Positions 58,725 through 61,700 of a stretch of 64,000 nucleotides of DNA are shown piece after piece; positions within the stretch are counted from its first letter, which is position 1; each line of letters begins with the position of its first letter. The stretch is from a virus (taxonomy: Duplodnaviria; Caudoviricetes): the IMG/VR virus record IMGVR_UViG_3300032138_000680, positions 1 through 64,000 of that record. One strand, written 5' to 3'. The notes under the pieces were generated by a model, which was given only the letters and a program-made list of their open reading frames with translations, searched no databases and was not told the origin of the DNA. A program made the translations under genes and the position numbers.

Positions 58725-61700
58725 TTTTTATCTCCTTAACTTCTTGTTTTAATTCTTCTATTTGTTCTTGTTGTTCTTTAACTGCTGAAATTAAAAATGG
58801 AATAATTTTTTCATATCGTAATCCCAACCATCCCTCACTCATTTCACCTACTAAACCAGGTACTATTTTTTGAACATCTTGTGCTATTAAACCAAAATCA
58901 TGAGTTATTTTTGTCCCCCACCCAGGTGCATCGGGTTTCCAATCAAATTCAACTGGTTCTAATTTATTAATTATTTCAAGTCCACTACCCAACGGAAGAA
59001 TATTATTTTTTAATCTTTCATCAGAACTTGCATATGCTATAACATTGGCATCAGATGCTATATCACCTTCAGCATAGATATCATATGCAGTAGTTGGAAC
59101 TACATCACCTACAGCAATTTCACCTTCTACTGTTAGAACACCTCCTGTATTTAATGCTGTTCTCTCAATTCTAATATCTGATCCGTGGAAAATAGAAGTT
59201 GCCCCTCCAATCATCGTATTCATATATCTTGAAGAAACAGATTGTATTCCTCTTGAACTCAAAAATGTTTTATTTTTATATGCAGTGAAAGTATTAGTGG
59301 CATTATTCATGAGATTTATTTGAAGGGTTGAATTGGTCGCATTCCCTGAAGATGATGCTACAAATTTATAAAATGTATATTTAACATAAGCATAACGACC
59401 TGGGAATATTCTCCTTAAATCAATTATATCCTCTACAGGAAATGGTTCATTTCCAGTACATAGACCGGGGTCTATTGTATCATAAACTTCTGAACCTATT
59501 GGGACATACGTGTCTGTTCTATCATCCCAATAGTACGCTTGAAACTTAAAATAAAGTGTACCACCATTGACATTACCTATAGTCTTATCGCCCACCAATT
59601 GTAATTGATGTTGAGTCAAATTACCTAAAAATGATGCATTATCGTGTCCCAAATCGTATCCGTGTGCAGTAGTGCTAGGTGCTGCGGATGTATTAGAGGA
59701 TCGCATATATCCAACAATATTACCTGTCCATGTGGCACTATTATTAATAGGTGAAATGGTCCCCAAAGTTCCAGGTGTCGTAACCCCAAAACTAACAGAA
59801 TCACTATCAAGGTTATCTGTATATTGACTACTTATATTAGAATCAGTTAAAAAACTACCACTATCGTGAAGTTTTAAAAATTCATATCCAGTTCCCGATG
59901 GAAAGTTAGTTGTTTCGATAAACCTTATTTCTGGTGCTCCAGCATTAACCTGAATACCAGGGGTGCCTCCAGCATGAATTCGTGCACTGGCTCCTGACCC
60001 ATAAAGTCTATCTCCTTGAACATTCCATCCACCTAATGTGATAGAACCACCTGATGTTATACCAATATAATCGTCATCGGTTCTATCTCCAATCCAACCA
60101 GAACCATCGGCAGCTAAGAAAAATCCTGTTCCACTTGATGCATTTGAAGCATTAGCACTTCTTAATGTACCTGTGTTACCACCATCATCTGTTCCTATAG
60201 TTAATATTTGACCAACAGTTGCTTCATTTGCTAATAATAAATCTGTTGCTACTGAATCAAATTGAGTTCCAAACTCTTCCCATCCTGAAGGTGGTGATCC
60301 AAGGGTAGATCCGGCGGCACCACTTGCTCCAGTCAAAGTAGTTAATAGATAATAGGTACTACTTACCTTTATTGCATCCCTTCTAACACCGTCTATATAA
60401 TAAAATGTTGTATTATCATAAGTGGAATCATCTGCGAATACCCCCCTATAAACTATACCAGGTCCAGAAGCTCCTGTTGCACCACTTGTTCCAGAAGTTC
60501 CTGCCGTACCACTTGTTCCACTCGTTCCCGCAGTTCCTGAAGTTCCACTTGTACCAGCAGTTCCACTTGTTCCAGAAGTCCCAGCAGTTCCTGAAGTTCC
60601 ACTTGTTCCAGCAGTTCCACTTGTTCCTGCCGTTCCACTTGTTCCTGCCGTTCCACTTGTTCCACTTGTACCCGCTGTTCCACTTGTTCCAGAAGTCCCA
60701 GCAGTTCCACTTGTACCAGCAGTTCCACTTGTTCCTGCCGTTCCACTTGTTCCACTTGTTCCTGCCGTTCCACTTGTTCCACTTGTACCAGCAGTTCCAC
60801 TCGTTCCCGCAGTTCCTGAAGTTCCACTTGTACCCGCTGTTCCACTTGTACCAGCAGTTCCACTCGTTCCCGCAGTTCCTGAAGTTCCACTTGTACCCGC
60901 TGTTCCACTTGTACCAGCAGTTCCACTTGTTCCTGCAGTTCCTGAAGTTCCACTTGTACCCGCTGTTCCTGAAGTTCCACTTGTTCCCGCTGTTCCACTT
61001 GTTCCACTTGTTCCCGCAGTTCCACTTGTACCCGCTGTTCCACTTGTACCAGCAGTTCCACTTGTTCCAGAAGTCCCAGCAGTTCCTGAAGTTCCACTTG
61101 TTCCAGCAGTTCCAGAAGTCCCAGCAGTTCCTGAAGTTCCACTTGTTCCAGCAGTTCCACTTGTTCCTGCCGTACCACTTGTTCCCGCAGTACCACTCGT
61201 TCCACTTGTACCTGCTGTTCCTGAAGTTCCACTTGTACCTGCTGTTCCCGATGTTCCACTTGTACCACTTGTACCTGCTGCTGCGTAAAGTTCCCAAGTA
61301 GAATTTCCTGATCCTGTATTTGGTGGGCCGTTATCTGGATCATCATCCTTATCATTCTCTGTTTTAACTCTCCAACTCGAACCATATCTCGTAATTAAAA
61401 AGTTTTCTTCAAATGTAAATCCAACTGGTTTTTCATCCCAAGAACCAGTAGGTGTTAAATCAAGTTGTGGTGCTCCAGTTGAAGTTTGTCTAAGACCACC
61501 CACAATAATAACTCTTCCTTTAGTTCCATATGTAGGATCGAATGCTATATAACTGGAATTAGAACCAACTTTCCATCTACCATCTCCTGCTAAGAAAGAA
61601 CCACTTCCATAGATATTTGGAAGATTTGTTGTTCCTGCTCCATAATCATTATTAGTAATCATGCTACTACCAGAACCACCTATTTGTAATATATCTTGAG

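Follow-up and report, generated by a model that had tools for sequence, protein, structure and literature searches.

A proline-free Gly-Thr-Ser/Ala collagen-like tract in a marine phage tail fibre and its candidate GT4-TibC-like glycosyltransferase

Introduction

How could a collagen-like rod be stabilised if its sequence offers neither proline nor charged residues? This question is raised by the stretch of DNA analysed here, positions 1 to 64,000 of the IMG/VR virus record IMGVR_UViG_3300032138_000680 (Duplodnaviria; Caudoviricetes), referred to below as the window. A tail-fibre gene at the end of the window encodes a long tract of Gly-X-Y triplets made up almost exclusively of Gly, Thr, Ser and Ala. 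A first-pass annotation had proposed that this tract needs, or serves as, a dense O-glycosylation site for the adjacent glycosyltransferases. The source record comprises 94,674 bases with 31% G+C, is about 31% complete and carries nearly all of its genes on one strand; it is a fragment of a marine phage. Pfam annotation covered window positions 20068–63999. On the evidence given below we lean, with modest confidence, towards a model in which the tract would form a trimeric collagen-like stalk and would be glycosylated by one enzyme of the island, a two-domain GT4-TibC-like glycosyltransferase.

Results

Frame translation of the minus strand at positions 60457–61275 (819 nucleotides, nt) gave 91 uninterrupted Gly-X-Y triplets, corresponding to fibre residues 2549–2821. 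About 90 triplets starting at 60458 had been reported, and only this start had to be corrected. The tract consists of 55 GTS and 33 GTA triplets followed by a terminal GAT-GAS-GPG, with Thr at 88 of the 91 X positions and Ser (56) or Ala (33) at nearly all Y positions. The reported lack of proline and charged residues ahead of the terminal triplets holds: triplets 1–88 contain only Gly (88), Thr (88), Ser (55) and Ala (33), with no Pro and no Asp, Glu, Lys or Arg. The sole Pro lies in the last triplet (GPG), and the usual stabilisers, i.e., Pro/hydroxyproline or charge pairs, are absent from the tract. The Pfam family Collagen (PF01391), with Gly at every third residue, matched with E = 9.4e-34 (cut-off 27.2 bits); the periodicity is therefore not a product of chance.

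The peptide units of the tract are encoded by 18 distinct 9-nt units. All 88 units agree at unit positions 1, 2, 4 and 5, third positions vary by 1.0–1.4 bits, and Ser codons of both kinds occur (AGT 40, TCN 16). It is therefore the peptide and not the DNA that has been conserved, as the earlier remark on synonymous variation had it, and the codon use supports selection on the peptide. The triplets are arranged in 18 GTS-GTS-GTA units, 14 GTS-GTA units and one GTS-GTS-GTS-GTA unit ahead of GAT-GAS-GPG. GTA triplets are never neighbours (probability under random order 1.9e-9), an order that shared unit ancestry could also yield. Runs of Ser triplets are one or two long, once three, and Ala never occupies successive Y positions. 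This even Ser spacing may stem from a limit to glycan density or simply from repeat-unit ancestry.

At the DNA level, 427 of the 789 31-mers in the tract are unique, and the longest exact internal repeats measure 90, 78 and 65 nt. One 90-nt internal duplicate lies at an offset of 63 nt, and the other units have diverged, with a self-identity of about 73–76%. The array is therefore old and diverged, and at most one duplication in it, of 63 nt, is recent. Because its DNA and codons are repetitive, three further open reading frames (ORFs) of 283–310 amino acids (aa) span the tract, at 60405–61301 (plus strand), 60446–61297 (minus strand) and 60453–61385 (minus strand), and gene callers may choose the wrong frame across it.

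Such tracts break short-read assemblies, and the first-pass annotation had named an assembly artefact as a finding that would undo its proposal. Thirteen studies, with 20 public runs between them, contained the stretch, and almost all of the runs carry a marine label. In four runs from four studies, contigs covered both flanks and reached into the tract without a single difference, and short pieces from its interior were reproduced exactly. The tract exists. No Logan contig bridged the whole tract in those four runs, and the number of 91 is the assembled triplet number only. Six contigs from related or analogous phages terminate inside a G-[T/S]-S tract, five at their ends (L219, L220, L224, L225, L226) and one at its start (L311). 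In another phage group, the near-identical contigs L218, L221, L222 and L223 differ in tract length (e.g., 252, 201 and 199 triplets), which may be either true variation or assembly noise. That the tract, or its length, arose from short-read metagenome assembly would fit the missing bridge, the broken contigs and these unequal lengths; it is nevertheless very improbable, given the exact junctions and inner pieces in four independent studies, a share of unique 31-mers that renders the tract assemblable, and a tract of this type in L311 that ends similarly (GAT-GSS-GAG versus GAT-GAS-GPG).

The suggestion that the tract varies in length fared less well. In one run, X2, a joint skipping 650 nt was found, with 22 letters on its shorter side and 20 foreign letters in between; at a depth of 6.7, compared with about 37–40, it was judged too weak to count as a length variant. 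This joint, the unequal tracts of the other phage group and the 90-nt duplicate speak weakly for variation, and the divergence of the units speaks against it.

Which gene accompanies such tracts was addressed in both directions. A degenerate DNA pattern for G-T-x-G-T-A-G-T-x-G-T matched at least 120 viral stretches. When all 85 proteins of the contig were compared with all 120 tract-bearing loci, only the 777-aa glycosyltransferase (52474–54807, minus strand), which joins a GT4 N-terminal half to a TibC-like half, recurred widely. It was matched in 15 of the 120 loci, in 10 of them via the TibC-like C-terminal half. Among 80 control fibre loci adding up to the same amount of DNA, this half was matched once, in a relative of this phage.

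In the reverse direction, a tract was counted, unless stated otherwise, as a G-X-Y run of at least 10 triplets within 10 kb; flanks of at most 10 kb miss distant partners. Loci found with the TibC-like domain alone carried a tract of at least 8 triplets in 12 of 13 cases. A profile of 15 sequences yielded at least 574 viral relatives, and 38 of the best 80 had a tract, which was strictly T/S-rich and Pro-poor in 28 (rounded thresholds; 27 with unrounded ones). The controls were much lower, with 3 of 80 S74 fibre loci in viral contigs, 2 of 79 in metagenome contigs and 0 of 13 orthologous fibres. The two metagenome positives are a single locus filed twice, and it also has a TibC-like match. The 80 S74 loci in viral contigs came from a search with the C-terminal 582 aa of the fibre, of which only the S74 domain matched. 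Comparison of 38/80 with 3/80 gave a Fisher value of 6.6e-11, although the loci are fragments, many of them related, and Fisher values and counts overstate independence. When domains sharing at least 60% identity were merged, tracts were still present in 13 of 21 clusters. Among prokaryote contigs with a TibC-like domain, 22 of 80 had a tract (16 strict), several of them in Methylococcales. Gene neighbourhoods argue strongly for an association of the TibC-like enzyme family with such tracts, far above the controls.

The TibC-like half comprises residues 400–771 (DNA 52477–53610), and Pfam assigned Glycos_transf_1 and Glyco_transf_9 to the 777-aa protein. The half aligned with PDB 4rap/4rb4 over chain residues 22–386 of 406 (E = 5.2e-58, 200 bits), i.e., the C-terminal half shows full-length homology to TibC of the BAHT family (bacterial autotransporter heptosyltransferases; TibC/Aah). 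According to the available sections of PMC4358343, TibC is an E. coli enzyme that heptosylates many serines, not threonines, of the adhesin TibA, with Asp-110 as catalytic base and Thr-226, Lys-230 and Trp-305 binding the sugar. These four residues are kept in the window enzyme as D489, T609, K613 and W687. Across 86 phage TibC-like domains, the equivalent of Asp-110 was found in 86, that of Lys-230 in 83 and that of Trp-305 in 85, and 85 had Thr or Ser in place of Thr-226. All nine TibC-like ORFs examined are GT4-TibC fusions, three of them with an additional methyltransferase domain.

The distribution among relatives of this phage follows the same pattern. Orthologous giant fibres were found in 13 viral loci, each adjoining the same upstream gene of 1053 aa. 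None of these fibres has a G-X-Y run of at least 6 triplets (two fibres are cut by the locus end), and no GT4-TibC-like enzyme was found in their loci. Homology to them ends about 85 residues ahead of the tract. Five whole records of tractless relatives gave neither a TibC-like domain nor a Collagen match; as a positive control, the same domain search recovered the enzyme in four of four known carriers. The metagenome contig L311 starts within a GTS/GTA tract, of which at least 53 triplets are present and which closes with GAT-GSS-GAG. There follow, in order, the fibre tip (55–58% identity), a CBM-like protein (51%) and the 777-aa glycosyltransferase (79%); the GT25, GT32-like and 506-aa genes of the window are absent. 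The tract is a lineage-specific module, and tract and enzyme were gained or lost together in this lineage.

Three side observations concern these relatives. The L311 tract has a mostly regular GTA-GTS-GTS period with an occasional extra GTS. One tractless relative has only a TibC-like remnant of 319 aa (L012 11593–12549; record G006 41877–42749), from which the GT4 half and the N-terminal barrel are missing; a single in-frame TAA lies within the profile match, which gives the impression of a gene in decay where there is no tract. Finally, the proteins of a 13.4-kb contig labelled as part of a metagenome-assembled genome of Candidatus Pacearchaeota archaeon (L391, NZDU01000051.1) are 60–97% identical to those of the sugar-island genes of the window, with 79% for the GT4-TibC-like protein. 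Most likely, a piece of a related phage was misbinned here into the archaeal genome.

Several points weigh against glycosylation of the tract by this enzyme. The enzyme is encoded 5.6 kb and four genes away from the tract. No tract was found within 10 kb at 42 of the 80 TibC-like loci, and TibC-like enzymes may have targets besides the tract. The contrast in the tract-to-enzyme direction is by itself marginal (Fisher p = 0.053), and the relatedness of the loci weakens the other comparisons. TibC targets Ser rather than Thr, and in the tract one Y position in three is Ala. The heptose-pathway Pfam families SIS_2 and CTP_transf_like were not matched on the 94.7-kb fragment, which represents about 31% of the genome and whose host could supply the donor. 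Trimer, triple helix, glycan, acceptor residue, sugar and the role of the sugar are, moreover, steps that we infer.

The remaining points of this kind concern the active site and assembly of the enzyme. In the sections of PMC4358343 available, Arg-286 of TibC is described as contacting adenine and conferring ADP specificity, and an iron finger and a thumb tip as being needed for the dodecamer; Cys and thumb-tip mutants form smaller assemblies and do not heptosylate TibA, and the Arg-286 mutant loses its activity wholly or largely. In the window enzyme, the equivalent of Arg-286 is Ala668, the iron-finger residues Cys-339, Cys-342, Cys-358 and Cys-370 are replaced by W723, S726, N742 and D755, and the thumb-tip residues Phe-265/Val-266 by E648 and C649. 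With these features lost, the window enzyme probably forms no TibC-like ring and may not use ADP-heptose as donor. Over the 86 phage domains, the Arg-286 column contains V in 34, R in 20 and T in 19, and the iron-finger Cys occur in 80 at sites 1 and 2, in 79 at site 3 and in 63 at site 4 (18 gaps). A Cys-less subclade comprises the domains of the window, L311, L391, L228 and L230, and a tract is visible in just two of these five (window and L311). The identity of 79% to both L311 and L391 argues that the window enzyme is still under selection.

A rival account takes up many of these points. In it, the tract is an unglycosylated spacer for which the flanking trimeric domains and a Thr/Ser hydroxyl-water network would suffice at sea temperature, and enzyme and sugar island would act elsewhere, on virion proteins, host surface polymers or DNA. 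It would accommodate the TibC-like loci without a nearby tract, the loss of iron finger, thumb and Arg-286 equivalents, the four genes between enzyme and fibre, and the presence of much of the sugar island in tractless relatives. It sits badly with the frequency of tracts beside the enzyme relative to all three control sets, which persists in the de-duplicated clusters, with the joint gain or loss of tract and enzyme, and with the homologue TibC being a dedicated protein serine glycosyltransferase (available sections of PMC4358343). On balance, we regard an unglycosylated spacer as rather unlikely and retain the glycosylated stalk as the working model.

The initial proposal had assumed that Pro or charge is what phage collagens usually depend on. 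This assumption fails for uncultured phages, among which proline-free tracts are common. Tract lengths and composition were examined in the first 80 pattern loci; 76 had tracts of at least 8 triplets, mostly of Pro-free G-[T/S]-S. The longest Pro-free G-[T/S]-S tracts had 639 triplets in the pattern loci and 684 triplets in the TibC-like loci. The window tract is atypical of this class, with Thr at 97% of the X positions (class median 44%) and Ala at 36% of the Y positions (class median 2%). A different composition was seen in a marine phage locus (L033 17645–18409, minus strand of the locus), where a proline-free tract of 85 triplets with Ala/Ser at X and Thr/Gln/Val at Y lies on the strand opposite to an S74-ended fibre gene.

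One cultured phage belongs to this set. Microcystis phage Mel-JY01 (PP395634.1; L471) encodes a TibC-like domain (E = 3e-71) in a 1226-aa protein annotated as 'methyltransferase FkbM'. At a distance of 1.7 kb upstream, an ORF of at least 1016 aa (L471 2–3052, plus strand) contains G-[T/S]-S tracts and a non-repeat C-terminal domain. The record instead annotates minus-strand 'hypothetical proteins' at 1–651 and 739–2298, i.e., Pro/Glu/Val-rich antisense repeats, and a short plus-strand coding sequence at 2519–3052, and probably reads the tract on the wrong strand. Tracts that are open in several frames become mis-annotated, and Mel-JY01 is an example. No papers were found in a literature search on Mel-JY01. 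As it is cultured, it makes the idea of a glycosylated tract directly testable.

The tract might also form no triple helix at all. Instead, it could be a linker rich in Ser/Thr, flexible and mucin-like, whether or not it is glycosylated, or take up some other glycine-repeat fold, polyglycine-II bundles for example. Its lack of Pro and charge pairs would suit such a structure, and in the host-guest peptides of Persikov and Brodsky, Thr at X and Ser at Y reportedly are among the weaker triple-helix formers. In addition, the stabilising glycosylated Thr of known collagens stands at Y, and Thr stands at X here (available sections of PMC11923368). However, Gly recurs at every third residue over 91 unbroken triplets, and codon positions 1 and 2 of Gly and Thr are invariant while the third drifts; a loose linker would not need such strictness. 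Equal periodicity extends over hundreds of triplets in other phages, and the fibre ends in a domain of the S74 family, usually a mark of trimers. A non-helical linker is considered improbable, and a collagen-like stalk remains the preferred structure.

The fibre gene that carries the tract occupies 58708–63999 of the window (minus strand) and extends beyond its end; the whole ORF spans contig positions 58708–68919 and encodes 3403 aa. The fibre matched PHROGs tail-fibre families (e.g., phrog_5073, E = 2.6e-32), a co-directional run of ORFs lies upstream, and with the orthologous fibres in 13 phage loci this makes up a virion-module context. At the C-terminus, a Peptidase_S74 chaperone domain (PF13884, E = 1.5e-15; 58849–59025, minus strand) covers residues 3299–3357 of 3403, and its Ser/Lys motif, SDERLK, begins at residue 3299. 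In a tblastn comparison of the fibre with deposited phages, only S74 ends matched, among them tail-fibre ends of cyanophages and pelagiphages. Fibres ending in S74 are usually trimers, and this fibre is presumed to be one too. The distal domain between tract and S74 (59026–60456, minus strand; residues 2822–3298) gave no match in the Pfam scan; from its position, it is presumed to be the receptor-binding tip and a C-terminal nucleus for trimer folding. It is this domain that recurs in L311, there too behind a GTS/GTA tract.

Next to the fibre, a 262-aa protein (57936–58724, minus strand) is encoded by a gene overlapping the fibre stop codon by 17 nt. It matched phrog_22177 (E = 5.9e-28) and, weakly and under the curated cut-off, CBM_4_9 (E = 0.0064), and its C-terminus has an acidic stretch followed by five Gly. 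Its L311 counterpart also directly follows the fibre. The protein may be tip-associated or serve in assembly.

Glycosylation had been ascribed to the adjacent glycosyltransferases in general. This idea gains from the GT4-TibC-like enzyme, through its TibC homology (E = 5e-58), its co-occurrence with tracts and L311, and loses with regard to GT25 and GT7. GT25 includes the animal collagen galactosyltransferases, and the window encodes a GT25 enzyme at 54871–55782 (PF01755, E = 2.5e-22). No relative of it was found among viral contigs, in the 120 tract loci or in L311, and it was rejected as tract modifier for want of linkage to tracts across relatives; the tract, moreover, contains no Lys for a hydroxylysine link. 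The GT7-LamG trio is present in relatives with tractless fibres and was rejected as tract-specific. Apart from these genes, the island codes for methyltransferases, aminotransferases, radical SAM enzymes and enzymes of nucleotide-sugar tailoring, which may supply or decorate glycans and are not tied to the tract. Much of the island (GT7s, radical SAM enzymes, aminotransferases) is common to tractless relatives. An FkbM-type methyltransferase (50225–51106, minus strand; Methyltransf_21, E = 5.1e-07) is a possible, less well evidenced accessory of the module: in other phages, the GT4-TibC-like protein carries a fused methyltransferase domain (FkbM-type in L218, other types in L202 and L198), the Mel-JY01 protein with the TibC-like match bears an FkbM annotation, and a relative of the window gene was found in only 3 of the 80 TibC-like loci.

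Discussion

Most likely, the tail fibre is a homotrimer and the tract a stalk module of its distal part. In the proposed mechanism, the C-terminal tip and the S74 chaperone domain would gather three chains, and the 273-residue tract would then zip into a collagen-like rod. At the collagen rise of 0.286 nm per residue, this rod would be about 78 nm long and would keep the receptor-binding tip clear of the shaft. The GT4-TibC-like enzyme would O-glycosylate the tract in the host cytoplasm, most likely at Ser in the Y position, its TibC-like half beginning the glycan and its GT4 half extending it. The sugars would stabilise and shield the helix in place of proline or charge pairs. Tract, tip, CBM-like protein and enzyme behave as a single exchangeable cassette; this pattern is observed, as are the tract, its gene context, the enzyme homology and the co-occurrence.

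BclA of the Bacillus anthracis exosporium is a surface filament with a Thr-rich collagen-like region and a C-terminal globular domain, and its repeat number varies by strain and sets the filament length. The BclA repeats are mostly Gly-Pro-Thr, i.e., proline-rich with Thr at Y. To our knowledge, the enzymes that glycosylate BclA are unrelated to TibC. BclA's collagen-like part is O-glycosylated (PMC11923368, citing Daubenspeck et al. 2004, in the sections available). The tract described here differs in lacking Pro, in having Thr at X and Ser/Ala at Y, and in belonging to a virion, not a spore. According to the same sections of PMC11923368, Thr-rich triplets carrying Thr at Y are more frequent than expected in the collagens of bacteria and viruses, with glycosylation proposed as stabiliser, and in Riftia cuticle collagen and the galactosylated (Gly-Pro-Thr)10 peptide a sugar on a hydroxyl residue replaces hydroxyproline in stabilising the helix. 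There, the sugar is carried by Thr at Y after Pro at X, whereas in the Pro-free tract the likeliest acceptor would be Ser at Y.

The closest parallels for the enzyme are TibC-TibA and Aah-AIDA-I of E. coli, in which, as here, the gene of a cytoplasmic enzyme lies close to that of a fibrous surface protein that is long, repetitive and Ser-rich (PMC4358343, available sections), and the catalytic Asp and the sugar-binding Thr, Lys and Trp are common to the window enzyme. The acceptor of TibC/Aah is a beta-helical autotransporter passenger, and the presumed acceptor here is a phage fibre Gly-X-Y tract. The window enzyme also differs from TibC in its fusion to GT4, as in all nine phage examples, and in the lost iron finger, thumb tip and Arg-286 equivalent, which render a dodecamer and an ADP-heptose donor doubtful.

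Regarding phage fibres, the EPclA prophage fibres of E. coli O157:H7 have a collagen-like tract between non-collagen trimer domains, as proposed here (available sections of PMC3368898 and PMC11923368); their tracts depend on Pro at X and on charged residues, which make up about 22% (PMC11923368), and the window tract has neither. Mycobacteriophage glycosyltransferases modify the virion proteins of their own phage, as the model would have it (Freeman et al. 2023, via PMC12619734). Their glycans sit at the C-termini of capsid and tail-tube subunits, and the sections of PMC12619734 available mention neither a collagen-like acceptor nor a TibC-type enzyme. In the full-text literature, with supplements outside the search, no paper was found on Gly-Thr-Ser collagen or on a pairing of TibC/BAHT enzymes with collagen-like tracts of phages.

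A broader proposal is possible rather than probable. In it, TibC-type enzymes and proline-free Gly-Thr/Ser-Ser tracts would constitute a widespread phage 'glyco-collagen' system, also present in bacteria such as Methylococcales, in which dense O-linked sugar would replace proline, hydroxyproline and charge pairs as stabiliser of the triple helix; tract, tip and enzyme would be a swappable host-range cassette, and the enzyme of this phage would have shed the iron finger and, with it, the dodecamer.

If the TibC-like enzyme does coat the tract with sugar, this would add a third natural means of stabilising the triple helix, independent of proline/hydroxyproline and of salt bridges, apparently used by some bacteria and by many uncultured phages. 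Collagen-like rods that are proline-free and glycosylatable may also be of interest as biomaterials. The BAHT family, a virulence-associated family of protein glycosyltransferases, would extend to the building of virions, and the large sugar-gene islands seen in marine jumbo phages would be explained in part. Finally, a fibre tip exchanged between phages could bring along its own modifying enzyme.

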